From Candidatus Bilamarchaeaceae archaeon (GTDB taxonomy: Archaea; Micrarchaeota; Micrarchaeia; Anstonellales; Bilamarchaeaceae), in assembly GCA_038870635.1 (NCBI GenBank), contig JAVZJR010000002.1, positions 66,792-130,791 on the forward strand: a DNA stretch of 64,000 bases, given 5' to 3'. Of the stretch, positions 3,001 to 55,332 are shown one piece after another. The notes under the pieces are model-generated. The model was given only the letters and a program-made list of their open reading frames with translations. It was not told the DNA's origin and searched no databases. Both the position numbers and the translations under genes were made by a program. Every line of letters begins with the position of its first letter. Within the stretch, counting starts at the first letter, position 1.

Positions 3001-6000
3001 CCTGCTACTTTGCCTAATGATAGGATGAGTTTTAGAAACAAATACGTAAACATTACACAAGAAGGAGGGGCGGTAAATATTGATAAGATAAGTTGGGTAT
3101 GGGTCGAGAGTGAATTATCAGGCTATAATGAGAGTAATTTTGAGTTATGGAAATATAACTCTTCCGGGTGGTCATTACTCAATAATACCCCAAACACTAT
3201 TACCAACCGTCTTTCGCTTACAAATCTTAATCCATTATCAACATATGCAATTCTACAAAATTTAGAAATGGAAAACTGTCCAGTGATAATTTCTCCAGGT
3301 ACATATATACAAAATAAAAACTATACCGGTGCACCCAACCCAGTATGGAGTTATGGTGGTTATGCTTGCGTTTACATACAGGCCGAGAATGTAACATTTG
3401 ATTGTAATGGCTATTCTATAATAAACAATGGCACGTCGAACTCGTACGGTATTTTTATAGATGAAACGTCAAGCAATATAACAATAAAGAATTGTAATGT
3501 ATCAAATTATACCTATGGGTTGCTTGGTTACAGTAACGTAAACATCGCTGCATTTAATAACACATTACATTCTAATGAAGTAAGTGGTTTTGCAGCTGAT
3601 GCTACATCAAACATAACTGTTATCAATAATACTATTTATAATAATACTTACTATGGCGTGTACATAATTTCTGGTGCAACAGCGAATTTTGAAAATACTC
3701 TTCTTTATAACAATTTAGAAGATGGAGTATTCGTTGATAACTTTAACAATGTATTTGTAAATAATGTTACATCAAAAGATACGTATGGTGATTGCTTTTT
3801 ATTTACGAACTCAGAAAATATATCTATACATAATATTTCTGCTTCTAATTGTAGTGATGCTGGTGCTTATGGCGGCGGAGTGAAAAATGTTACTATTTCT
3901 AATTCTTCGATAATGCTGTCATCTTACGGTGTATACCTATTCAGTTCACAGAAGATTAACACTAGCGGAAATCAAATTTATAATTTGTCCACGAATAGTT
4001 TTTATGCTATAAACTCTAAAGAAATTTTTATCTTAGATAATTCGATTGTAGATGCTTCCAATGGCATCTACTGGCAAAATGTAACCAACGGTAGTATAAA
4101 AAACAATTACGCGTTTAATTCTTCTTCTTTTTCTAATATTTATTACGCTACCTTTATAAACTTGAATAATAATACATTAAAAAACATTTCTAATAACATA
4201 ATATTTTTATATTCTAATCTATCGAACATCACTCTTAATAACATATATTGTAGAAATACTGCAGGAACTTACGGTCTGTCTGTATCAAACGGATTCGGCT
4301 TTAATGTTGTTGATAACTTTATTATTGGTTGTACTAGTTATGGCATATCATTTTCTGGTGTAGAAAACTCACAGATTAGAAGTAATAATATAAGTGGTGG
4401 CAGCTCTTTAGTATACTTGCAAAGTTCAAATAATAATCTATCTGTAGTAAACAACATTTTGCAAAATTCTATAAATAATGGTTTGATTACAGTTTCTTTA
4501 ACTAATTCTACAATAGAGAACAATACTATATATAATGTTAGTTATTATGCACTCTACTTAACTTCCTCCTCTAATTATAATTTGATTTCATCTAATAAGA
4601 TATATTCGAATAGAAGAGGAATATACAATATATATGTTGATTTCTGTAACTTCACCAATAATGAAATCTATAATAGTTCTGAATATTTGGTATATTCTTC
4701 GTCGTCAAACAACAATCGTTTTATTAATAATTCTATGTACAATAGCACTTCATACGGTGTTCATTTATACAATTCTCAATTCTTTAACTTTACCCATAAC
4801 ACAATCTATGGGACATCAAACCGTGCTTTTACTCTGCAATCTAGTTCAAATAATACGTTATCTAATAACGACATAAAAAGAATTTCTCAAGTGGCGGTTT
4901 ATTTGTACGCTAACTCTAGTGATAATCTATTTATCGATAATACCATTCACGATAACACTAACTACGCTTTTTACGTTTATCAAAATTCAGTTAACAACAC
5001 ATTTTACAATAACACATTATTCAACAATTCTTATGGATTTTTTATACTGAACTCAAACTTCCAGAACATAGATCATTGTAATATATATAATAATACTCAA
5101 ATAGGTGTTCAATTTTCTAATTCAAATTATAGCATTATTAGTAATTCTATGATTTATAACAATACAAATCATGGCGTATCAATTGGTAGTTCTAGTAACA
5201 TAATTATTACAAACACAACTATCCATAACCATAATTATCACGGAATAGTGTTGTCATCATCTGATTATAACAACATAACAAACAATACGGTGTACAACAA
5301 TAATTGGCATGGTATCTACGTGCAGTTTTCCAACAATACTGTTATTGTTAATAATACAATATACAAAAACTCGCAAAATGGTATATACTTAACAAGCAGT
5401 CACAATGCAATAATTTCTGATAACAATGTCACCAATAATAGTGTTTATGGTATATTCTTTTCTTCATCCAATTTAAACACAATGTCTGATAATTACGTAT
5501 GTTTCAACACCCTTGACATAAATAACTCCGGAAGCAGTAATATAGGTGCATATGACAGATGTGATAAATGGTATAATTGGTTTGAGAATAGTCATCCCGG
5601 TTGTACTTTCACATGCTCTAAGATATGGCACAGGTTCTTTGGCAATGTGAGCGGTAATATCCTTCTTGCTCCAAATGAAACATCGATTTTCTATAACTGG
5701 ACATGGAATACAAATAAGGGAAAAGTCTATGTTATAAACGGAGATGCTGTAATTGACTGGGCAGCTGTTTTTGCATTGGGCAGAAATATATCTGAACAAA
5801 ACTCAACAAACGATTTTGCAGAATTAAATAACTTACTTAATATGGGGGACGAATATGACAATCTCACTAATCTTTACTCTTATGATGGCAGTAATCCATT
5901 GATAACAAAGAATATTTCTGTTTATGGAAAAATGATTAATTTTATACCACTTGCAAATTCATCTTATCAAACCGCAGGGGTTCACTACACCGGCATAATG

Positions 6001-27958: not shown

Positions 27959-28065
27959 TTTGTGGCGCATACCGTTCAACCGACCCGTCACGGCTTTTTG
28001 CTCTGGTGGCCATTAAGTATGCACCACGTAAAAATTATTAATTTTCTTTATTTAATTCTTTCGTG

Positions 28066-28482
28066 ATGCGTATGAAGACCTATACTGATTACTTAGTTTT
28101 TAATACAAGAAGTAGAATTGAGTTCGTTAGAATAACTGATCAAGTGAATGACGTAATAGAGCGTAGCGGCATTCGAGATGGAATCGTATTAGTAAATCCA
28201 ATGCACATAACTGCAGCAGTTATCGTAAACGATGATGAAAATGGGTTGAAAAGAGATTTTATTCGTGTTCTTCAAAAACTTATTCCATACGATGATAATT
28301 ACGAGCACAACGTAGGTGAAGACAATGCCGCAGCCCATATATGGCGGCAATTTATGGGCCATCAAGTTGTTATGCCTGTCCGAAATGGACGGCTTGAGCT
28401 TGGCAGATGGGAACAACTTTTCTATTGTGAATTCGATGGCCAGAGAACAAAAAGAGTTTTGGTGAAAGTGATTGGAGAATAA
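28066..28482 (+). CDS. YjbQ/UPF0047 family protein (secondary thiamine-phosphate synthase-like)
   Basis: 138 aa. [38 protein letters not shown]......P....[12 protein letters not shown] matches the UPF0047 pattern. Confidence 0.75.
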
Positions 28483-28484
28483 TT

Positions 28485-28922
28485 CTATACTTTTCTTGGT
28501 ATTAACCTGCCAAGAGCTCCAAATTCCTCTTTTTTTGGACCTATGCTTATCGAAGACGGCCATTTTATCTCTATGATACCATCCTCTGTGTTTATTTCAA
28601 GAGGTAGTTCATGAGGGGCGATCTTTGTATTTTCGAATTTTACAACCTCGTTATTTTTTGGTTTTTCTATTAAATTTAATTCTTTTTTCAATGAGAGTGT
28701 AAATTTTTCAGCTAATTCTTTGTCACCTACATTTAAAGTGTATGAAGTCATTGGTTCGCCATTAATAGAATTCATGATTATCTTTGTAATGCTTGCGACA
28801 AAATTGTCTTTTTCTTTTTTTAATCCATCTAAGATATTTTTATTGATTTGAATATTTGCAGTTACGGATATTTTTATTTTTCTTTCACTGCGTTCTTCTA
28901 TATCAGCTAAATCTTTTAACAT
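28485..28922 (-). CDS. Hypothetical protein (possibly the 3' part of a longer disrupted gene reaching 29232)
   Basis: 145-aa ORF. The same frame stays open upstream to 29020 without an ATG. See the finding on 27143-29232. Confidence 0.45.
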   Translation of the reverse strand: MLKDLADIEERSERKIKISVTANIQINKNILDGLKKEKDNFVASITKIIMNSINGEPMTSYTLNVGDKELAEKFTLSLKKELNLIEKPKNNEVVKFENTKIAPHELPLEINTEDGIIEIKWPSSISIGPKKEEFGALGRLIPRKV

Positions 28923-29218
28923 CTCTGCAGTATCTTTTTTTGATACATTTTCAATATCATTTTTATATTTTTGAATTTCTTCTTTATTTCCTCTATAATT
29001 GACCTTAACTGAAAAAGATAGATATTTTTTTCATTCATTTCATCAGCGAGTTTTCTGAGTTCATTAGCATTCATCTCTTTATTTTTGAAACTTTTGTTAC
29101 CTTTTTTTATTTATTCCGCAATATTATTTATTGTGCGCTCATATGCATTTGATAGCCTATCTCTAATTTTTTTTCATTTAATTCTGCAGCATACTCTTCA
29201 AGTGTAATCTTATTTTCT

Positions 29219-29782
29219 TTAGTTTTTTGCATTCCCTATCACCTTAGCAGGCACCATTTTATCACTGTTTACAATTATCATCACTTCATTATCTAATAAA
29301 AATACTACGTTTTCATCGACTATTTCAATATTTTTGATGTTCCCCATTTCTTTTAGCGGCTGAATTGAAATAAATACTGCGTTTTGGAAATATATTGTAC
29401 CATTTCTTTTACCTAATATTTCTTTTCCATTCCTAATTTCTTCACAGCCCAAAGTTCTTATAATATAATTTTCAGTTATGAGGATTGTTCTCTCGGCCTG
29501 ATAAGAAGTTTTAATTATATTTTCTTTGTTGAGGTCTATATTTGATGGAATGTCAAGTTCTAATTTTTTATTGTTAGTGCTACATATTATCTGTTCGTTA
29601 TTTAAAACACAATTCATTTTGCATTGGAGCCGAGTTTGTTCTATTTCTTTTTTGAAGGTTGCGCATGAAATTAAAGGTGGAAGAAGTGCAAAGCAAGTTG
29701 CCTTTAAGAAGTAATTTTTTATTTTTTTGAGTCTCTCCCTGAAGCATAACTTTTTTCCATTTTTTTCCTGTTTTTCTGTCAT
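29219..29782 (-). CDS. Hypothetical protein, possibly lipoprotein-like
   Basis: 187-aa ORF. Hydrophobic segment ATCFALLPPLISC. No family recognised. Confidence 0.5.
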   Translation of the reverse strand: MTEKQEKNGKKLCFRERLKKIKNYFLKATCFALLPPLISCATFKKEIEQTRLQCKMNCVLNNEQIICSTNNKKLELDIPSNIDLNKENIIKTSYQAERTILITENYIIRTLGCEEIRNGKEILGKRNGTIYFQNAVFISIQPLKEMGNIKNIEIVDENVVFLLDNEVMIIVNSDKMVPAKVIGNAKN

Positions 29783-29894
29783 ATGTTATAATAAGTGCAT
29801 AAATATAATTATAAATGTTTGCTTCTATTGTATATTTAAGATATTTGTATATTAAGATATAAATAAATAGATGGCCATTTTTATATTATAGTCG

Positions 29895-30488
29895 GTGAGT
29901 AGTTTGGTAACGAAAAAAGAGTGGTGTTTAAATAGTTTTTTGGCCAAAGCGCTAGAAACTCAAAAACAAAAAAAATTAGATGCGCCATTTCGCTTTCCTT
30001 TAGAAAGACCATTAAGTGAAGATTTAATGAAAAAAATCGAAACCTATCTTCCTTATCTTACAACAGAAACAAGAAGAAGGATTGCGGCAGACCTTCATGA
30101 AAGGCCAGCAGTGGAAGCTGCCAACCTTATGTTTTTTATGTGTAAAGAGGAAAAAGATGTCGAGATAAGACTTCTGCTTCTTCAAACATTAACTTGTGAT
30201 TTAAAATATAAGAGGGCCTCTGAAATAATTAGAGCGCGTTCTGTTTATTTAGCAGATTATCCTGGTCAAATCTCTCGTACGGAAGTTTCTTATTTTTTGA
30301 AATTTATCCGATATATAAGAGATGAGAATTGCCTTCATTCTTTAGCTCTTTTATTACATGGCTTGAAAGGTGTCGATAGAGATAATTACGAAGATTTAAT
30401 AAAAGAGGCCAACTCGCTTTTTCTTGAGATTTATGATAAATATCTAATTAGATTGTATGATAAAAAAGATGCTCCGACCGGGATTTGA
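29895..30488 (+). CDS. Hypothetical helical-repeat protein
   Basis: 197-aa ORF with GTG start. HEAT-like helical-repeat feel (..RRRIAADLHERPAVEAANLMFF..EIRLLLLQTL). The last 19 nt overlap the 3' end of the opposite-strand tRNA-Glu. Confidence 0.4.
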   Translation: MSSLVTKKEWCLNSFLAKALETQKQKKLDAPFRFPLERPLSEDLMKKIETYLPYLTTETRRRIAADLHERPAVEAANLMFFMCKEEKDVEIRLLLLQTLTCDLKYKRASEIIRARSVYLADYPGQISRTEVSYFLKFIRYIRDENCLHSLALLLHGLKGVDRDNYEDLIKEANSLFLEIYDKYLIRLYDKKDAPTGI

Positions 30489-30544
30489 ACCCGGGTCGCC
30501 GGATTGAAAGTCCGGTATCCTTGACCGGTCTAGACGATCGGAGC
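30470..30544 (-). tRNA. tRNA-Glu (anticodon UUC), no intron, CCA not encoded
   Basis: Minus-strand sequence is GCTCCGATCGTCTAGACCGGTCAAGGATACCGGACTTTCAATCCGGCGACCCGGGTTCAAATCCCGGTCGGAGCA. Acceptor stem GCTCCGA/TCGGAGC (7 bp). Anticodon stem CCGGA/TCCGG with loop CTTTCAA (anticodon TTC). T stem CCGGG/CCCGG with loop TTCAAAT. Discriminator A. Confidence 0.95.
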
Positions 30545-30667
30545 GTAAGCGAAGAGATGAAACCGAAACGTCGGTTTCACGATCGGAGCGTAAGCGAAGA
30601 GATGAAACCGAAACGTCGGTTTCACGATCGGAGCAACGCGAAGAAATATGAACGAATCGTCGTTCAC
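30536..30667 (-). repeat. Tandem repeat in the tRNA-Glu leader: two identical 45-bp units plus one diverged 42-bp unit
   Basis: Plus-strand units are 30536-30580 = 30581-30625 (gatcggagcgtaagcgaagagatgaaaccgaaacgtcggtttcac, identical). The third unit is 30626-30667 (gatcggagcaacgcgaagaaatatgaacgaatcgtcgttcac). The first unit overlaps tRNA positions 1-9. Each unit contains a hairpin. Confidence 0.9.
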
Positions 30668-30707
30668 TGGCCAAGTACAATATGTTTTAAGAACTTGTAA
30701 GAAAAGG

Positions 30708-30715
30708 TTTATAAG
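30708..30715 (-). promoter_or_regulatory. TATA-like box upstream of the tRNA-Glu leader repeats
   Basis: Minus strand reads CTTATAAA. A start ~25 nt downstream (~30685) would transcribe all three repeat units as a ~140-nt leader. AT-rich context makes the call tentative. Confidence 0.3.
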
Positions 30716-30762
30716 TGCAACTGAGGTATCGCCAATTTCATAAATAATAAAAAAATAAAAAA

Positions 30763-31179
30763 TTATTTAGATGCTAAATCGTATACTAGTTTTAATGATA
30801 CTACTAATGCAGCCGGTGCAACAAAAGCAGCAAGAGCTGATAAAACATTGGCCAACTTTGTTACTATTATTAGTCCAATTTCACTCATTCCTACTTGTGT
30901 TGCGATAGAAGTAATCATTTGTGCGAGGGGTGCCCAGGAGTTAAGAACGCTAAGCAAAGCAATTGTGGCCACTAAGAAAGAGACGGTTTCCTTTTCAGCT
31001 ATGTTCATGAAACCTACAATTAGACCAAGCAGCGCTAATACGCCCAAGATGTAAACTGCTGCAAAGCTTAATTCAGTGGAGAAAAGACCAACTATCAAAG
31101 CCAGTACTACCCCTAACAAAAACGCCCATTCACCATACTTCGGGACAAACTCCTCTGTTTTTACTTTTTTTTCTGGCAT
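30763..31179 (-). CDS. Small integral membrane protein, hypothetical
   Basis: 138 aa with four hydrophobic segments. No family recognised. Confidence 0.55.
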   Translation of the reverse strand: MPEKKVKTEEFVPKYGEWAFLLGVVLALIVGLFSTELSFAAVYILGVLALLGLIVGFMNIAEKETVSFLVATIALLSVLNSWAPLAQMITSIATQVGMSEIGLIIVTKLANVLSALAAFVAPAALVVSLKLVYDLASK

Positions 31180-31231
31180 ATTTTCACCTTTTTCTGTCTA
31201 AAAACCTCAGGTAAAGTTTTTAAAGCTATGC

Positions 31232-32077
31232 TTAAATTACGACAGAGGCGAGATATGCCAAAAGACCAAAAAAAAGTGCTATTAGACTTAACACGCGGGC
31301 TTTTTTGTATTGATTTTTTACAGCATAAAATATATTCGCAGCCACGAGAACGATTGCAACACTAAAAAGTACGGTGGAGAAGATGTTAATGTTAAGACCA
31401 AAGTAAAATGGCAAAAATGATAATGGAATAAACATCAGATAGAGTAAAAGCGCAAGAGCTAATGTTGGTTTTTCACCTATTAGAATTGGCAATGTCATGG
31501 CTTCTCTTGCTTCCTTATCCCCTTTCATATCCTCTATTGACTTTATAAGTTCGCGTGCGAGTCCAACTATGAAACCAAGCAAGAAAAGCACGAGATTTAT
31601 TATTTTTATTTCTTGAGAAACTATTAAATTTCCGAATATGAACGGAATACCCATCGTAAAGGCTATGTAAAAATTCCCAACAAGCGGTAAAAGTTTTAGT
31701 TTAAGATTGTAGAGTATAGCTAATGAATTTAGCGCAACTGTTAGCATAAAAATTTCTTGATTAACAAAAAACGATAGGGCTATCGCGATGGTTATGCATA
31801 TAGAGGAAAGCAAAAGAGCAAATGAAGGAGAGAGGGAAGCGGTCGCTAATGGTCGATCTTTTCTATTATTTTTTCTATCTGCTTCTATATCAAAATAATC
31901 GTTTAGTGCAAACGCTCCCATCTCGCTTAAAAGCGGAATCAATAACACAAAAAGAGGAAGATTTGATAAACCATCTGCAAAAACCACTGCTGCCAATACT
32001 GCCAATGAATACATAACGCCGTGTTCTATTCTTGTTAGTTTTGCAATCTCTAAAAGCATAACAATCTTTCGCAGCAT
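31232..32077 (-). CDS. UbiA-family prenyltransferase, probably digeranylgeranylglyceryl phosphate synthase
   Basis: 281 aa, polytopic. ALNDYFDIEADRKNNRKDRPLA is the UbiA Asp-rich motif. Size and pattern fit archaeal DGGGP synthase. Substrate is inferred. Confidence 0.7.
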   Translation of the reverse strand: MLRKIVMLLEIAKLTRIEHGVMYSLAVLAAVVFADGLSNLPLFVLLIPLLSEMGAFALNDYFDIEADRKNNRKDRPLATASLSPSFALLLSSICITIAIALSFFVNQEIFMLTVALNSLAILYNLKLKLLPLVGNFYIAFTMGIPFIFGNLIVSQEIKIINLVLFLLGFIVGLARELIKSIEDMKGDKEAREAMTLPILIGEKPTLALALLLYLMFIPLSFLPFYFGLNINIFSTVLFSVAIVLVAANIFYAVKNQYKKARVLSLIALFFGLLAYLASVVI

Positions 32078-36199: not shown

Positions 36200-38974
36200 A
36201 TGAAAGTGAATTTGAAGAAAATCGGTGCCATTGTTGCAGGAGCAACAATTTTGGCAAGCACCGCGGCCTTCGGTGCACTTTGGTACGGAAACACCAAACT
36301 CGTTGACGAGAATGGTGTGCCAGTTGCCAAAGTAGTCGTCGGTGAAAAGGCAGCAGCATCAGATGGTGTGGGAGCTGCTTTGATAGCTTCCAGAATGATG
36401 GCTAGCGCCTATAAAACCGTCGAGTTAAAAGGCCAAGTTGTAGGAACAGCAACATGCACAGGTGGCGAGGGAAGCGGAAGCGGAACCTGCCCAATCTCTG
36501 ATGAGAAAGTAACATTAGAGATTAGCGTTCCAGGTGCAGTTGCAGAAGGAACATACACAATAAACACCTTGATCGGTGATTTCTTAAACAGAAGATTGCT
36601 TGACAGAAAAGCCAATAATGCTAGTGATACTGACGCAGCATATATAATAGGCGGAACAGATGTAAGTGAAAACGCAAACCCATTCACAAATGGTATAGGT
36701 GGGAATATTGGAGTTGGAGAAACTTTCCTTTATAGAGTAACTGGCTCTATGTTTTCACCATTGGCAACAGTTACAGTTAAAGATGACAACGCAGGAAAGA
36801 CCTACAAGGAAGAACAGAACATTTGGATAAAAGGAAAAGTCGAGTACTCTGACTCCGCAAACGAAGTTGTTGGCGAGCCATCATTTTTAGCTTACACACT
36901 TAAGTTCAGCGGCGCAGCAGATGACTTTGGTATTCCTGTATGTACTACTCCAAATGGACAAGACTATAATGCATGTTTGCCAGGTGGAAGCCAACCGAAC
37001 ATTGATTATGCAACGTCAACACACAAGGTTGCAGTTAAGTTTTTGGGTGAAGACTGGATAATAAGTGAAATGACTCCACCAGAAGGAGGGGGTAGTGAAA
37101 CTGAGATTTATTCAGGAGGTTCCATAAAATTAGCAAAAGAAGCAATATCTGGTTTAGTAAACCAAGGTGAATCACTTCCAGTGGACAATCTTAAGTTCCA
37201 CTTAGACGACTTGGAAGCACACGGCGATACAACCTCTGCTATTTTGTCTGTTCTTGATGCAAACGACAACATCTTAAAGAAAGACAAAGTAAACCCTGGT
37301 GAAACAAAAGAGTTTAACATAAATGGTAAACTCTACAGAGTGCACGTTTACAAAGTTGCTCCTGGTTATACTTTTGGTGCAAAATGGGCAGACATGGCAA
37401 TTTATGCAAAAGAATTGAAACTTGAAGACGGTCAAAAACTTGACCCAGACTATGACAACAACAAAGAATACCAAGTTATTCTTGGTTGGAAAGACAGAGG
37501 TGCAGATAATAGCACTGACCACTTAAGAACAATTATTCTATACGGTGATGACATTAGTGCTTTATCAAGCGGCGGAGACCAAAAAATGTCAAAAGGTGAC
37601 TACATACCAATTGTTCAAGACCCAGTTGCATGGAAACTTACCTATGCTGGTTTAGATATAACAAATGCTGACAGGAGTTCGCTTAAATTTACACTTGAAA
37701 GAACAACTGATTACGTAATATCCTCAACAAAAGGTCCATTGTCTGGCGGTGTAAGAGAACAATGTACTATATTCGCACCTTACGTTAAAGTAACAAGCGG
37801 AAAGAGTGGAAGCGTATTTGAATTGGATGGTATTGATGGTGACAACAATGCTACTTTGGCGGATAATGCCTTCTATGTTGCTACTAGTGGTGCCAACTGC
37901 ACCGACAGTGGTGATAAAACAGACGGTACTGTATTTATGAAATTGTCCCCAACAAGCCAATACTTCGGTTATTATCAATACGATGATGCTACACCTGAAT
38001 CTACTGTGGTTAGGTATAGCACAGCAGGTGATGGTGACACATCTTGGGATGTTGGTGGTGTAATAGAAATCGCTAAATACAATGATGCAATCACAGCTGG
38101 CCGATCATTTATGGGTGATAACCGTGGTGGTACTGGCCCGAGCTTTGGTACAGATAACTTAACCGAATCAGGTTCAGCAACAGACTTTTACTTTGCAATA
38201 TCTGAAAAAGCAGGTGTTGATACATCAAACAACTTTGCAGACTATATACTCTTTGGTCTTGACCTCAACGGTGCTTCATCAACATTCAACTATGATACCC
38301 AAACAAGTACAGGGAATTATATAACTAAGAAAGACTATGTGCTCTATAGGTATGCTGGTCCAGTAACCACAGGTATTAATACTGCTGAAGAAGGCTTTGT
38401 AACAGAAAGAGGCACTATATTCAATAGCATAGATGACACAACAGTAAGCTTCAGCATGGCAAACAAGCTTGCAAAGGCTCAATTCACATTGACCTCTAGC
38501 ACAGCAGGAGGCTCAACAGAAAGCACCTGCCAAGCAACATTGCCAGAGGGTGGTGAATACACCTGCAGCGGTGTTAAAGTTAAAGTAACCAAGATAGACG
38601 AAACAGTTGGTGCATGCTCTGCTTCTGGTGCATCAGCAACCTGCAAGCCAGACATGACTGGTGTAAGCGCAAAGGTTGTTGACGCAACTGGTGCAGAAGT
38701 AACAAAAGCATACATACCAGCTGCAAACGCATACAAGGGCTTGGTTATCCTTGACAGAGACGCAGCAGGCGTTAACACCTTGATATCCGTCGGTGGTGAC
38801 AAGGTCAACTCAGTTACTGCATCTCTTCTTGAGAGCTCTCCAGTTGAATGGACTCCTGGCACAAAGATAGTGAAGGAAGTCGTTCAAGGCTCCAAGATAG
38901 TTGTTGCTGGTACTGAGGCAGAAGACACCCTTGCAGCAGTCAGCGACTTCATTGCAGCAGTTAAAGAGGCGTAA
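36200..38974 (+). CDS. S-layer protein (Methanococcales-type S_layer_MJ family)
   Basis: 924 aa. LKKIGAIVAGATILASTAAFG is the signal typical of this family. The protein is T/G/A/D-rich and low in Cys. The C-terminus is ..KIVVAGTEAEDTLAAVSDFIAAVKEA. The gene is clearly GC-richer than its surroundings and is followed by strong T-tracts. Confidence 0.8.
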   Translation: MKVNLKKIGAIVAGATILASTAAFGALWYGNTKLVDENGVPVAKVVVGEKAAASDGVGAALIASRMMASAYKTVELKGQVVGTATCTGGEGSGSGTCPISDEKVTLEISVPGAVAEGTYTINTLIGDFLNRRLLDRKANNASDTDAAYIIGGTDVSENANPFTNGIGGNIGVGETFLYRVTGSMFSPLATVTVKDDNAGKTYKEEQNIWIKGKVEYSDSANEVVGEPSFLAYTLKFSGAADDFGIPVCTTPNGQDYNACLPGGSQPNIDYATSTHKVAVKFLGEDWIISEMTPPEGGGSETEIYSGGSIKLAKEAISGLVNQGESLPVDNLKFHLDDLEAHGDTTSAILSVLDANDNILKKDKVNPGETKEFNINGKLYRVHVYKVAPGYTFGAKWADMAIYAKELKLEDGQKLDPDYDNNKEYQVILGWKDRGADNSTDHLRTIILYGDDISALSSGGDQKMSKGDYIPIVQDPVAWKLTYAGLDITNADRSSLKFTLERTTDYVISSTKGPLSGGVREQCTIFAPYVKVTSGKSGSVFELDGIDGDNNATLADNAFYVATSGANCTDSGDKTDGTVFMKLSPTSQYFGYYQYDDATPESTVVRYSTAGDGDTSWDVGGVIEIAKYNDAITAGRSFMGDNRGGTGPSFGTDNLTESGSATDFYFAISEKAGVDTSNNFADYILFGLDLNGASSTFNYDTQTSTGNYITKKDYVLYRYAGPVTTGINTAEEGFVTERGTIFNSIDDTTVSFSMANKLAKAQFTLTSSTAGGSTESTCQATLPEGGEYTCSGVKVKVTKIDETVGACSASGASATCKPDMTGVSAKVVDATGAEVTKAYIPAANAYKGLVILDRDAAGVNTLISVGGDKVNSVTASLLESSPVEWTPGTKIVKEVVQGSKIVVAGTEAEDTLAAVSDFIAAVKEA

Positions 38975-38978
38975 TTGC

Positions 38979-39010
38979 CTTCTTTTCTTTTTTTCTTTTT
39001 TTATTTTTGT
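38979..39010 (+). terminator. Oligo-T archaeal terminator after the S-layer gene
   Basis: cttcttttctttttttctttttttatttttg: several T5-T7 runs directly after the TAA stop. Confidence 0.6.
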
Positions 39011-53883: not shown

Positions 53884-55332
53884 ATGGTTGATACTAAAGG
53901 GGAGTACTTAATAAAAAAAACTGAAAAAGGCCCTCTGCAGAGGTTTAAAAATCAAAATCTCCTCCTTAAAAAATTTGGTGAAGTTGGCCTAAAGATTTAT
54001 CGTGCTATAACTGGTAAGCGCACTATTGAGGAATTGAAAAAAGATCTTAACTTAGAAGACCAAATGTTTTATCCAGTTATAGAATATATGAAAGAGACAG
54101 AGATGGTAGAGCTTATTCCAGTTGGCGGTGCAACTGAAGAAAGAGCTGCCGAAGTAAAAGAAAAACCAAAAGCAGTTGAGAAAGTTGAGAAGCCGAAAAA
54201 GGAAATAGAAGAGGAAGCGCCGCGCGAGGTTGAAGTTCCAGAATTTGAGGAAGAGGCAGAGATAGCTGAAGAAAAGGAAAAAGAAGAGGTCCTCTCTACT
54301 GAAGAAGAAAAAGCAGAGACAGAGGAAGAATCATTTTTTGAAGAAATCGAGCCAATAAAACCAGAAAAAGTAGAAAAAGAGGAAAAAGAAGAGGTTTTAG
54401 AAATAGAAAAAGAAGAAACTGAAGAAAAGTTAGAAGAGGAAAGTGTAGAAGAATCTAAAGAAGAAAGGGAGGAAGCGCCTTCTGAAGAAGAGTACGAAGA
54501 AGAAGCTTTTGAAATAGAAAGAGAAAAAGAGGAGGAGTTCTCTTTTGAAGAAGAGCCAGAAGAAAGTTCAGTAGAAAAAACAATACGTGATAAATACGGT
54601 GATGTTGGTATTCAAGTTTACAACCTCATTGATGGTAAAAGAACAGCAGAAGAGATAATGAATGAAGTTGGTATAAGCGAAGCAAAACTAATAGAAATAC
54701 TTGATTTTTTAGATAAGGAAGGAATAATAAAACTTGAATACCCTGGCGGCAAGAAGGCAAAAGAGGAGCCTAAGGTGCCGCCAAAAGAAGAAATAGAGGA
54801 GACTGGTTTTGCTCCTATCGTAGAAATGGAGAAAGAAGAGGCCGCAAAGGAAGTGACCATTCCTAACCCAATCGAAATACCTATGAAGCTGCCCATTGAC
54901 ATCGTTAAATCAATACAAATAAATGCAAATCTTTTATTGAAGTTTAAAGATGATGGTAAAAAGGTTTTTTCTTTAGTAAACGGGCAAAACGATGTCATAG
55001 ATATTGCATTGAAAACTGACCTACCGTTGCAAAAAGTTTATGAAATTCTTAATTATTTAGGAGAGAACGCCATGGTTATTTTAAAGCCTATGACCCGAGA
55101 CTTAGTTAAAAAGAAATACGGAGATGACGCCTTCACAATATACAAAAGATATGGCCGAGAAGGAGTTATGCTTTATGAATTAATAGGCAAAGACCTTTCT
55201 TTTAAGGAGATGGTCTCAAGAACAACTAATGATAAGCAGCGTGCCTTGGATATTTTTGTCTTTATTCACGAAGTTTTAGGAATAGAACTCCCACTCGATA
55301 AAGAGATATTGGCAAAACAGATTGGGCTGTGA
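53884..55332 (+). CDS. Acidic protein with three winged-helix-like modules separated by E/K low-complexity linkers
   Basis: 482 aa. Repeated pattern (V/I)Y.LI.GKRT.EE(I/L).......E.....I(L/E).......(I/V).L at aa ~35-80, ~240-285 and ~350-400. A long EEEKE linker spans aa ~95-230. Confidence 0.5.
   Translation: MVDTKGEYLIKKTEKGPLQRFKNQNLLLKKFGEVGLKIYRAITGKRTIEELKKDLNLEDQMFYPVIEYMKETEMVELIPVGGATEERAAEVKEKPKAVEKVEKPKKEIEEEAPREVEVPEFEEEAEIAEEKEKEEVLSTEEEKAETEEESFFEEIEPIKPEKVEKEEKEEVLEIEKEETEEKLEEESVEESKEEREEAPSEEEYEEEAFEIEREKEEEFSFEEEPEESSVEKTIRDKYGDVGIQVYNLIDGKRTAEEIMNEVGISEAKLIEILDFLDKEGIIKLEYPGGKKAKEEPKVPPKEEIEETGFAPIVEMEKEEAAKEVTIPNPIEIPMKLPIDIVKSIQINANLLLKFKDDGKKVFSLVNGQNDVIDIALKTDLPLQKVYEILNYLGENAMVILKPMTRDLVKKKYGDDAFTIYKRYGREGVMLYELIGKDLSFKEMVSRTTNDKQRALDIFVFIHEVLGIELPLDKEILAKQIGL

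Follow-up and report, generated by a model that had tools for sequence, protein, structure and literature searches.

The tRNA-Glu(UUC) gene in the 64 kb stretch of DNA analysed here (the window), from a Bilamarchaeaceae archaeon (Micrarchaeota, DPANN), is preceded by a tandem array of hairpin modules that include copies of the tRNA's own first nucleotides. The reading preferred here, with a probability of about 0.5, is that this array is a copy-number-variable minisatellite of hairpin modules in the transcribed leader of pre-tRNA-Glu, that RNase P removes it, and that selection keeps its modules folded upon themselves. A leader array of this kind is a real and undescribed oddity; a search of the literature for such tRNA leaders found none. 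The locus is laid out as follows.

30470 to 30544, minus strand: tRNA-Glu(UUC), 75 nt, with no encoded CCA, found by ARAGORN and by Rfam (RF00005).
30545 to 30589, minus strand: proximal 45-nt unit, with the 11-mer R (GCTCCGATCGT) at 30579-30589, hairpin A at 30558-30579 and the tail TCTCTTCGCTTAC at 30545-30557.
30590 to 30634, minus strand: second full 45-nt unit, distal to the first and of the same sequence, with R at 30624-30634, hairpin A at 30603-30624 and the tail at 30590-30602.
30635 to 30667, minus strand: diverged partial unit S', with the hairpin GTGAACGA-cgat-TCGTTCAT and the tail TATTTCTTCGCGTT, and no R in front.
30668 to 30707, minus strand: short leader of the ancestral kind, where transcription is predicted to start; it can be aligned to the leader of L020, a relative without the array.
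30708 to 30714, minus strand: TATA box TTATAAA, homologous to TTTTAAAT 5' of tRNA-Glu in L011, L014, L017 and L020.
30741 to 30762, minus strand: T-rich terminator region belonging to the gene for a 138-aa membrane protein upstream (30763-31179).

The tRNA gene scores 63.1 bits against RF00005 (gathering score 29) and thus belongs to the tRNA family; its sequence is the same in L011, L010 and L020, and a run of T (30459-30469) follows it directly. Upstream of it, tandem-repeat analysis (TRF) returns a perfect 45-bp repeat at 30534-30634 with 2.2 copies, a 100% match and a score of 202, which bears out the identity of the two proximal units recognised by the sequence-only reading. The 11-mer R occurs exactly three times, and because one of these (30534-30544) is the tRNA's own start, two leader units carry R and not three. 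The earlier proposal of three leader units, each bearing the tRNA's initial 11 nt, therefore holds for the two full units and fails for the distal one, where the position in front of the hairpin reads ACTTGGCCAGT; likewise, the acceptor 5' strand has two extra copies where three had been proposed. With at most one mismatch allowed, R matches four times in the window against 0.21 matches expected by chance, the fourth (one mismatch) being at 54811. The hairpins of the two full units are identical 9-bp stems, TGAAACCGA-cgtt-TCGGTTTCA, and in the proximal unit the first base of hairpin A is also the last T of R. S' holds a diverged 7-bp hairpin, TGAACGA-cgat-TCGTTCA, at 30649-30666, so that the hairpin is, as first noted, preserved with a different sequence; its stem consists of seven Watson-Crick pairs and a closing G.U. 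The covariance model CM R1 gives 34.5 bits for the proximal unit, 64.8 bits for 30579-30634 and 23.2 bits for S'. The window has only eight perfect hairpins that reach a GC content of 0.4 and a stem length of 7 bp or more, and three of these lie in the tRNA-Glu leader; searches with CM R1 and with patterns found no other copy of the module in the 64 kb. A second hairpin, B, is degenerate in the window units, its loop and 3' arm being gone.

Several other identities for the units were considered and rejected. Unit interiors compared with the tRNA on both strands do no better than shuffles (P 0.13-0.80), which speaks against decayed tRNA copies or a tRNA pseudogene. An E-value-mode cmscan of 30400-30800 in the window and of 850-1450 in L011 returns tRNA as the only Rfam family, all else falling far below the gathering score. 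A CRISPR array, in which conserved repeats of 23-50 nt alternate with unique spacers of 25-50 nt, is at odds with variable parts that are perfect palindromes of 15-22 nt and conserved parts that are the tRNA start and the linker, and the Rfam search returned no CRISPR families. By eye, the RUGAUGA/CUGA pair of C/D-box sRNAs is absent, the hairpins are too short for H/ACA and have no pocket, the G-string of origin-recognition boxes is absent, and the half-site spacing ranges from 7 to 12, unlike a CRP-like TGTGA..TCACA protein site. Open reading frames that span the repeats (30444-30680 on the minus strand and 30485-30700 on the plus strand) cross the tRNA and are regarded as spurious.

Comparison with syntenic relatives places the array between the promoter and the tRNA. 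The TATA-like box reported earlier is seen at 30708-30714, and the promoter TTWTAAAYCTTTT to which it belongs is shared with array-free relatives. In these (L020, L014 and L017) the distance from TATA to tRNA is 42-48 nt, whereas with the array it is 125 or 170 nt in the species of the window (170 nt in the window) and 330 nt in L011. This longer distance indicates that the array was inserted between promoter and tRNA, as the earlier placement of the repeats in the leader had it. Judged from the promoter regions compared, transcription probably starts within 30668-30707 and, since closer to the tRNA there is no further promoter-like box, the whole array would be transcribed as a pre-tRNA leader of 95-300 nt. 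Ordinary archaeal pre-tRNA 5' leaders also lie between TATA and +1 and are presumably cut at the mature 5' end; the array leader differs from them in its distance from TATA to +1 (125-330 nt against ~42-48 nt in relatives), in being GC-rich and in its hairpin modules and copies of 11 nt of the tRNA. The terminator region at 30741-30762 separates the 138-aa membrane-protein gene from the tRNA promoter. For the downstream 197-aa ORF no homologues outside the species were found, and ~2.4 kb of the same genome beyond the window holds no further tRNAs.

The number of units varies between strains. One unit is present in L001, L002 and L005 and two in the window and in L003, these being independent assemblies whose 3-kb flanks carry 0-2 mismatches; the one-unit alleles lack one of the two identical 45-bp units. 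In the k=31 contigs of Logan, those from SRR27170999 and SRR27730018 end at the exact last unique 31-mer expected for at least two units, and the graph in SRR27730023 is linear through one unit. L077 and L078, in which a neighbouring protein is 99% identical, have two non-identical units with swapped or different tails and a 45/44 spacing, and because their tails differ these units cannot be made by assembly collapse or expansion. In L011, which is syntenic, the units number about six and measure 47 and 52 nt, one 47-nt unit recurring (TRF period 47/99, 4.8 copies). The feature is not an assembly artefact: identical flanks around one- and two-unit versions could reflect assembler behaviour, but that an assembler duplicated or collapsed a short repeat is scarcely credible given the linear and the broken Logan contigs, the two distinguishable units of L077 and L078 and the six units of L011.

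A head-to-tail unit of 10-100 bp with strain-variable copy number is a tandem repeat of the VNTR minisatellite kind. The array resembles prokaryotic minisatellites (e.g. MIRU-type) in its head-to-tail unit of 45-52 bp and in a copy number that varies between otherwise identical genomes, and is unlike them in lying inside a tRNA leader, in having a unit boundary that enters the tRNA gene and in two hairpins that are compensatorily kept. As these comparisons show, modules are gained, lost and reordered in the array through slipped-strand mispairing or through unequal recombination of one module with another. Replication-slippage duplication, one of the origins suggested from the sequence, fits the perfectly identical proximal pair, a pair that varies between genomes whose flanks are the same. 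A homologous arrangement in relatives, the lack of which would have counted against the sequence-only reading, is present in L011, L015 and L077. L020 is the nearest neighbour on a small protein tree yet is array-free, so the history of the array needs loss, or else lateral or independent gain.

The pairing of both hairpins is preserved by compensatory changes. Across eight units from three lineages (two hairpins, 18 pairs), pairing holds in 97.7% of cells, compared with 83% for shuffles; none of 500 shuffles did as well, and slid registers give 27-41%. Changes on both sides have occurred in 10 of the 18 pairs. Hairpin A counts 82 Watson-Crick pairs, three G.U and no A.C, and hairpin B 36 Watson-Crick pairs. 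Nucleotides 1-2 and 5-7 of the following R, or of the tRNA itself, form the 3' side of hairpin B, and the linker G/T covaries with C/A at position 5 of R. Stem sequences differ between adjacent units, and the copies of R are near-identical while the stems turn over. The view that structure rather than sequence is maintained, at which the one comparison within the window only hinted, is thus backed by covariation. Compensatorily kept hairpins inside a fast-evolving minisatellite are an unusual pairing of traits, and the array offers a small, clean system in which to separate selection on RNA structure from maintenance of palindromes at the DNA level. Stems that are almost always perfect could instead reflect palindrome correction by template switching at the DNA level and not RNA selection.

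Under the minisatellite reading, a module is made up of R (a copy of the first 9-11 nt of the tRNA), the perfect hairpin A, a pyrimidine-rich linker and, in relatives, hairpin B. The array may have originated when tandem duplication of a leader hairpin module took in the tRNA's initial 11 nt as well; later modules would then all carry R, and the oldest would have none before it. S' is the oldest unit of the window array. Cleavage by RNase P at the proximal R would discard the array. The pairing is probably preserved so that a long leader with extra copies of the acceptor strand folds upon itself and does not compete with the folding of the tRNA, and a dedicated regulatory function is not required to explain it. 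If the array is transcribed, it constitutes a natural pre-tRNA leader in which the acceptor 5' strand has 2-5 additional copies, and a ready-made test of site choice, and of the tolerance of long structured leaders, by archaeal RNase P or another 5' maturase of Micrarchaeota. If it is merely a tolerated product of slippage, the lesson is a modest one, namely that tRNA leaders in reduced genomes absorb repeat expansions.

Alternatively, the leader may act in cis as a regulator, the copies of R and the hairpin that pairs with R or the tRNA setting the fraction of precursor competent for RNase P, with an output dependent on temperature or unit number. This would be a rather unlikely role. Alternative acceptor pairings, anticipated from the sequence, are predicted: in partition-function folding of the window alleles the 3' acceptor strand prefers the distal R, with a probability of 0.41-0.80, and pairs with the true 5' end with a probability of 0.007-0.16 at 37 C and 0.12-0.27 at 65 C. 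The true acceptor pairing is predicted at 0.99 in array-free L020 and at 0.005 at 37 C rising to 0.50 at 65 C in L011. These values come from RNAfold, a thermodynamic model that leaves out tertiary structure and modification of the tRNA as well as folding during transcription, and this weakens the argument drawn from them. Also in favour of regulation are the covariation of hairpin B, including its pairing with positions 5-7 of R, the near-identity of R despite the turnover of stems, and the GC content of the array (~50% in a genome of ~35%). Nevertheless, hairpin B is degenerate in the species of the window, the array is dispensable, being missing in the close relative L020 with its identical tRNA, and gene conversion or concerted evolution alone can hold R identical. 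A dedicated RNA device is distinctly unlikely; in it, decoy acceptor strands and masking hairpins would let the module number (1, 2, 6 and so on) set the fraction of pre-tRNA-Glu in an RNase P-competent fold, as a VNTR-type, possibly temperature-sensitive, phase-variable control over the supply of a single-copy essential tRNA in a reduced DPANN genome. Since hairpin B is missing in the window units, no role given to it can be general. Decoy copies predicted to compete with the true 5' strand also sit uneasily with a harmless array.

The hairpins might instead be recognition structures for a transposase, left by small mobile palindromic elements (REP/MITE-like) that inserted repeatedly at the 5' boundary of the tRNA, an unlikely origin for which some signs of mobility nonetheless speak. 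In L011, a hairpin of the hairpin A type, AGTGAACGG-tacg-CCGTTCACT followed by ATCT, stands right after the stop codon of an S-layer-like gene; it is missing at the homologous site in the window and is the only extra hairpin outside the array in 11.5 kb of L011. L015 holds one complete unit in another, repeat-rich spacer, and the same place in L013 is without it. The hairpin of L011 and the ectopic unit of L015 show that the module is not bound strictly to the tRNA and hint at mobility, and the spread among relatives is patchy. REPs are 20-40-bp palindromes that are often found 3' of genes and often clustered, and the REP/BIME repeats of bacteria are tagged by GTAG or CGTC (PMC3733652); REP-like elements have been reported in archaea (PMC12306157). 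Like these, the units are small, GC-rich, clustered and probably transcribed intergenic hairpins (15-22 nt), one module copy of L011 lies 3' of a highly expressed gene, and the L011 linker reads CGTC by hairpin B. Unlike these, the stems are unconserved between units and the flanks conserved, which is the reverse of REP families, and all units run head-to-tail. Very few copies lie outside the array, with none further in the 64 kb window, so that the many dispersed copies of a conserved palindrome that mark REPs are found neither there nor in the 11.5 kb of L011. CGTC adjoins hairpin B in the L011 units only, where its G covaries as a paired base and is not an unpaired tag, and the six neighbouring ORFs scanned revealed no transposase or RAYT. 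The recent change between one and two perfect units with identical flanks is what slippage predicts.

Excision at the RNA level, in which two copies of R join into a symmetric bulge-helix-bulge (BHB) motif by way of the GATC palindrome they contain and the broad-specificity splicing endonuclease removes single units, restoring one R, is very improbable. In the window, a BHB scan pairs the distal R with the middle R as GC[TCC]GATC-GT, the tRNA genes of Micrarchaeota are rich in non-canonical insertions (L014, L017, L009), and the endonuclease of ARMAN is described as having broad specificity (PMC3239211). A BHB intron has the hBHBh' motif (two 3-nt bulges with 4 bp between them, and flanking helices) at both boundaries, but the outer helices here are 2-3 bp with wobble pairs, and at the thresholds used the motif appears only for the distal and middle R in the window and for no R:R pair in L011. 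Such excision also conflicts with the covarying hairpin B on the same R nucleotides and is unneeded, the proximal copy being already contiguous with the tRNA. The array and archaeal BHB introns or disrupted tRNA genes share a lineage with many non-canonical tRNA insertions, extra sequence at a tRNA exon boundary and a weak BHB that can be drawn between copies of R. Unlike BHB introns and split or permuted tRNAs, this tRNA-Glu is contiguous and intact, the extra sequence is 5' of +1 and the covarying structure is not a BHB.

Integration often targets tRNA genes, and the hallmark of att sites is that part of the tRNA is found as direct repeats beside the gene, as is seen here. The array as att-core scars of repeated site-specific integration and excision at the 5' end of the tRNA is nevertheless extremely unlikely, since the repeats are just 34 nt apart, the repeated part is the tRNA's 5' end, over 11 nt only, and conservative recombination leaves no scars. 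The recombination scars offered by the sequence-only reading also find no counterpart among genes or viruses: Pfam and PHROGs gave no matches and no integrase or mobile-element gene in the six flanking ORFs, and the hairpin 20-mer and the 5' 20-mer of the tRNA have no match in IMG/VR, where 15-mers match 12 and 40 times, in every case in an unrelated context and compatible with chance.

The differences in unit number between identical flanks provide a hypervariable marker for strain tracking of hot-spring Bilamarchaeaceae. At the level of single pairs, the closing pair of the S' hairpin is G.U in the window and G-C in strain L077. The G.U pairs are restricted to the tRNA-sense strand, and one of them stands where another strain has G-C.

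A real tandem array occupies the promoter-to-tRNA interval upstream of tRNA-Glu in the window, and its unit boundary takes in 9-11 nt of the tRNA's 5' end (this copied tRNA start is termed R).

Features of the tRNA-Glu locus, listed in tRNA sense
30741-62, minus strand: T-rich end of the 138-aa membrane-protein gene (sequence)
30708-14, minus strand: TTATAAA, TATA box (sequence)
Between TTATAAA and the distal hairpin, minus strand: AT-rich stretch, ~40 nt (sequence)
30648-67, minus strand: distal hairpin GTGAACGA-cgat-TCGTTCAT, then tail TATTTCTTCGCGTT (sequence)
30590-634, minus strand: distal full unit, GCTCCGATCGT + TGAAACCGA-cgtt-TCGGTTTCA + TCTCTTCGCTTAC (sequence, TRF)
30545-589, minus strand: proximal unit, same as the distal full unit (sequence, TRF)
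30470-544, minus strand: tRNA-Glu(UUC), starting with GCTCCGATCGT, T-run after it (ARAGORN, Rfam)

Both ARAGORN and Rfam (63.1 bits) support the tRNA identity, and the tandem repeat has a period of 45 bp (2.2 copies, 100% identity, TRF score 202). The 11-mer GCTCCGATCGT has exactly three exact copies, and 4 matches at no more than one mismatch against 0.21 expected. The sequence-only reading had claimed three leader units each beginning with this 11-mer; the fourth copy, before the distal hairpin, was mis-transcribed, the true letters at that point being ACTTGGCCAGT. Perfect hairpins that contain GC and have a stem of 7 bp or more are rare (8 in the 64 kb, 3 of them in this leader), and array GC is ~50% vs ~35% for the window. 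Around the locus lie archaeal genes (rpl1, rpl10, P1, a UbiA-type prenyltransferase and an S-layer-like protein), whose nearest named proteins belong to Candidatus Bilamarchaeaceae or Micrarchaeota MAGs. An orphan ORF (29895-30488, plus strand) converges on the tRNA and shares 19 nt with its 3' end; this ORF is without a homologue outside the species, is called as 182, 194 or 197 aa depending on the assembly and, like the next three small ORFs (28485-29782), has no match in Pfam or PHROGs.

Compensatory change, as read from aligned units, preserves two hairpins, A and B. Among eight units from three lineages scored on the two-hairpin structure, standard pairs filled 97.7% of 129 cells vs 83.0 +/- 2.4% when shuffled (0/500), 10 of 18 pairs had changed on both sides vs 4.5 expected (0/500), and the covariation score was 0.335 vs 0.125; the suggestion that structure rather than sequence is kept is thus upheld. 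Pairing fell to 27-41% once the 3' partners were shifted by 1-3 columns. Hairpin B continues via a 2x2 internal loop into a 3-bp helix of linker TCG with R positions 5-7 (CGA), where linker G/T covaries with R5 C/A in unit 1 of L011 and in L015, two relatives' loci. This position is mismatched in the window, where hairpin B is without loop and 3' arm (TCTCTTCGCTTAC followed by GC, vs TCTCTTC-GCTTAC-ttc-GTAAGC in L015). All distinct hairpins together give 82 Watson-Crick, 3 G.U and 0 A.C pairs for hairpin A and 36 Watson-Crick pairs for hairpin B. The G.U pairs occur in the tRNA-sense strand only, which, at n=3, mildly favours RNA-level constraint over DNA-level palindrome correction.

Homologous arrays exist in relatives, the sought counterpart being found in L011 (metagenome contig Ga0078972_1002682; about six units, same synteny) and, as one unit, in L015. 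Gene order in L011 is that of the window (UbiA, 138-aa homologue), with a TTTTAAAT box, then an array of ~300 nt and finally a tRNA-Glu of exactly the same sequence as in the window. Its units, 47 or 52 nt each, comprise R (GCTCCGATCGT, GCTCCGATTGA or decayed GCTCAGATTCT), hairpin A (TGTGATCGG-caat-CCGATCACA, [T/A]GTGAAC-ttc-GTTCAC[A/T] or TGTGATCGA-cgtt-TCGATTACA), the linker (A)TCTCGTC and hairpin B (GCAAAC-ttc-GTTTGC, GCTTAT-ttc-ATAAGC or GCTACC-N10-GGTAGC), whose final GC doubles as bases 1-2 of the R or tRNA that follows. In three array-free syntenic relatives (L020, L014 and L017, with neighbour-protein identities of 77%, 66% and 63%; the L020 tRNA is identical) the same promoter motif stands 42-48 nt from tRNA +1; the interval is longer in the window (170 nt), in the 1-unit allele (125 nt) and in L011 (330 nt). 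A small and weak neighbour-protein tree places the window with array-free L020, not with the L011/L015 clade, and the array distribution is therefore patchy.

Relatives L012-L016 differ in gene order from the window locus (28063-32077): they have YjbQ upstream of UbiA, whereas the window has it past the tRNA, with the rpl1-rpl10-P1 operon bordering UbiA, an arrangement consistent with inversion of the UbiA / 138-aa / tRNA-Glu block. In more distant Micrarchaeota the syntenic tRNA-Glu (L014 3020-3130; L017 3010-3290; L009 6860-6960, minus strand) is interrupted by between one and three insertions outside the canonical sites, in the D-loop, anticodon loop and T-arm, and ARAGORN missed these genes. 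An 8-bp hairpin, CGAACCGC-N7-GCGGTTCG, in the L009 tRNA-tRNA spacer stops 1 nt short of tRNA-Glu.

Independent assemblies of the window's population, found via exact-protein look-ups, carry one 45-bp unit (GCA_038873475.1, GCA_038890955.1 and a Logan contig of SRR27730023) or two (the window and GCA_038894175.1), and 1.5-kb flanks on either side show 0 mismatches, or 2 for GCA_038894175.1. Logan (k=31) contigs of SRR27170999 and SRR27730018 end at ...GTTGCTCCGATCGTGAAACCGACGTTTCGGTTT and the downstream contig begins GTTTCATCTCTTCGCTTACGCTCCGATCGTC, the last and first unique 31-mers predicted for at least two units, whereas the contig of the 1-unit allele is linear. Two further assemblies (GCA_038886115.1 and GCA_038885415.1; neighbour protein 99% identical) have two units with differing tails, TCTCTACGCTTAC and then TCTCTTCGCGTT, at a spacing of 45/44; their distal hairpin closes with G-C, that of the window with G.U. 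On this evidence the locus behaves like a VNTR, with a copy number that changes on a very short evolutionary scale.

The favoured reading, at a probability of about 0.5, is a tolerated structured-leader minisatellite, a variant on structured leaders and hairpin minisatellites, both already known kinds; no tRNA leader made of repeated tRNA 5'-end copies and covarying hairpins came up in our literature search. Since no TATA-like box lies closer to the tRNA, the array would be transcribed as a leader, which RNase P would remove at the proximal R copy. It may have originated by tandem duplication of the leader hairpin module plus tRNA start, with later slippage or unequal exchange and with selection for self-contained folding. 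Rfam holds no match to the array; a decayed tRNA copy or pseudogene was rejected, the unit interior not deriving from the tRNA body, and the locus was judged not to be a CRISPR array and probably not an intron.

A regulatory decoy or anti-acceptor leader is a tentative, rather unlikely alternative. Partition functions of precursors starting 27 nt past the TATA box, an assumed start, place the 3' acceptor strand on distal R at 37 C with probability 0.41 (2-unit allele) or 0.80 (1-unit), and on the genuine 5' end with 0.16 or 0.007; genuine acceptor pairing reaches 0.99 in array-free L020. In L011 hairpin B masks every R at 37 C, the real one included, with real acceptor pairing up to 0.50 at 65 C. 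Competition from decoy copies is thermodynamically possible in this model, which leaves tertiary structure, modifications and folding during transcription out of account and therefore indicates possibility, not occurrence. Were unit number to tune tRNA-Glu maturation, the locus would be considerably more interesting.

Doubtful to a slightly greater degree is a mobile module of REP or MITE type. The array resembles REP-type hairpin clusters in appearance (PMC3733652, PMC12306157) but departs from them on the REP tests applied, its stems not being conserved nor its units dispersed in the sequence searched. No further copy was seen on scanning the window's 64 kb with a covariance model of the unit; the model does match one hairpin A-type hairpin with ATCT directly after the L011 S-layer-like gene, which suggests that the hairpin module can turn up at other transcript ends. 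This perfect 9-bp hairpin (AGTGAACGG-tacg-CCGTTCACT, L011 11101-11122, leader-hairpin type) lies after the 923-aa gene's stop codon and before its T-run; the homologous window site (38975-38990) has no hairpin.

The complete L015 unit is ectopic (3175-3240), lying within another repeat-rich spacer, and is missing in 99%-identical L013, where 6 nt take its place. That spacer, from 138-aa gene to tRNA promoter (L015 2940-3440, L013 2940-3250), is full of repeated CGCCCTTTTTTGGCTTACTG modules 50-170 bp apart (L011 1, L013 at least 3, L015 ~5) and of GGGC-AAAAAA-GCCC hairpins.

Excision at a bulge-helix-bulge is very improbable. Between two R copies (window 30579-30634) a weak symmetric motif of this kind is possible, GC[TCC]GATC-GT twice, because R contains the palindrome GATC, and cuts at equivalent bulge positions would take out exactly one unit and restore R; however, the flanking helices are only 2-3 bp and the pairing needs bases already used by covarying hairpin B. 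Scars of repeated site-specific recombination, also proposed earlier, are scarcely credible, and att duplication was rejected: none of six flanking ORFs scanned is an integrase or matches Pfam or PHROGs, and a search of 2.9 million viral contigs turned up no genuine match. Least probable of all, an assembly artefact is ruled out by the Logan break pattern and by the strains with two distinguishable units.

An 8-bp perfect hairpin, ATTGTTGC-agga-GCAACAAT, lies ~30 nt inside the S-layer-like gene and is conserved in three lineages (by sequence: window 36230-36249; L011 8349-8368; L010, a further relative, 981-1000); it may act in translation or mRNA stability, or be a by-product of conserved signal-peptide coding sequence.
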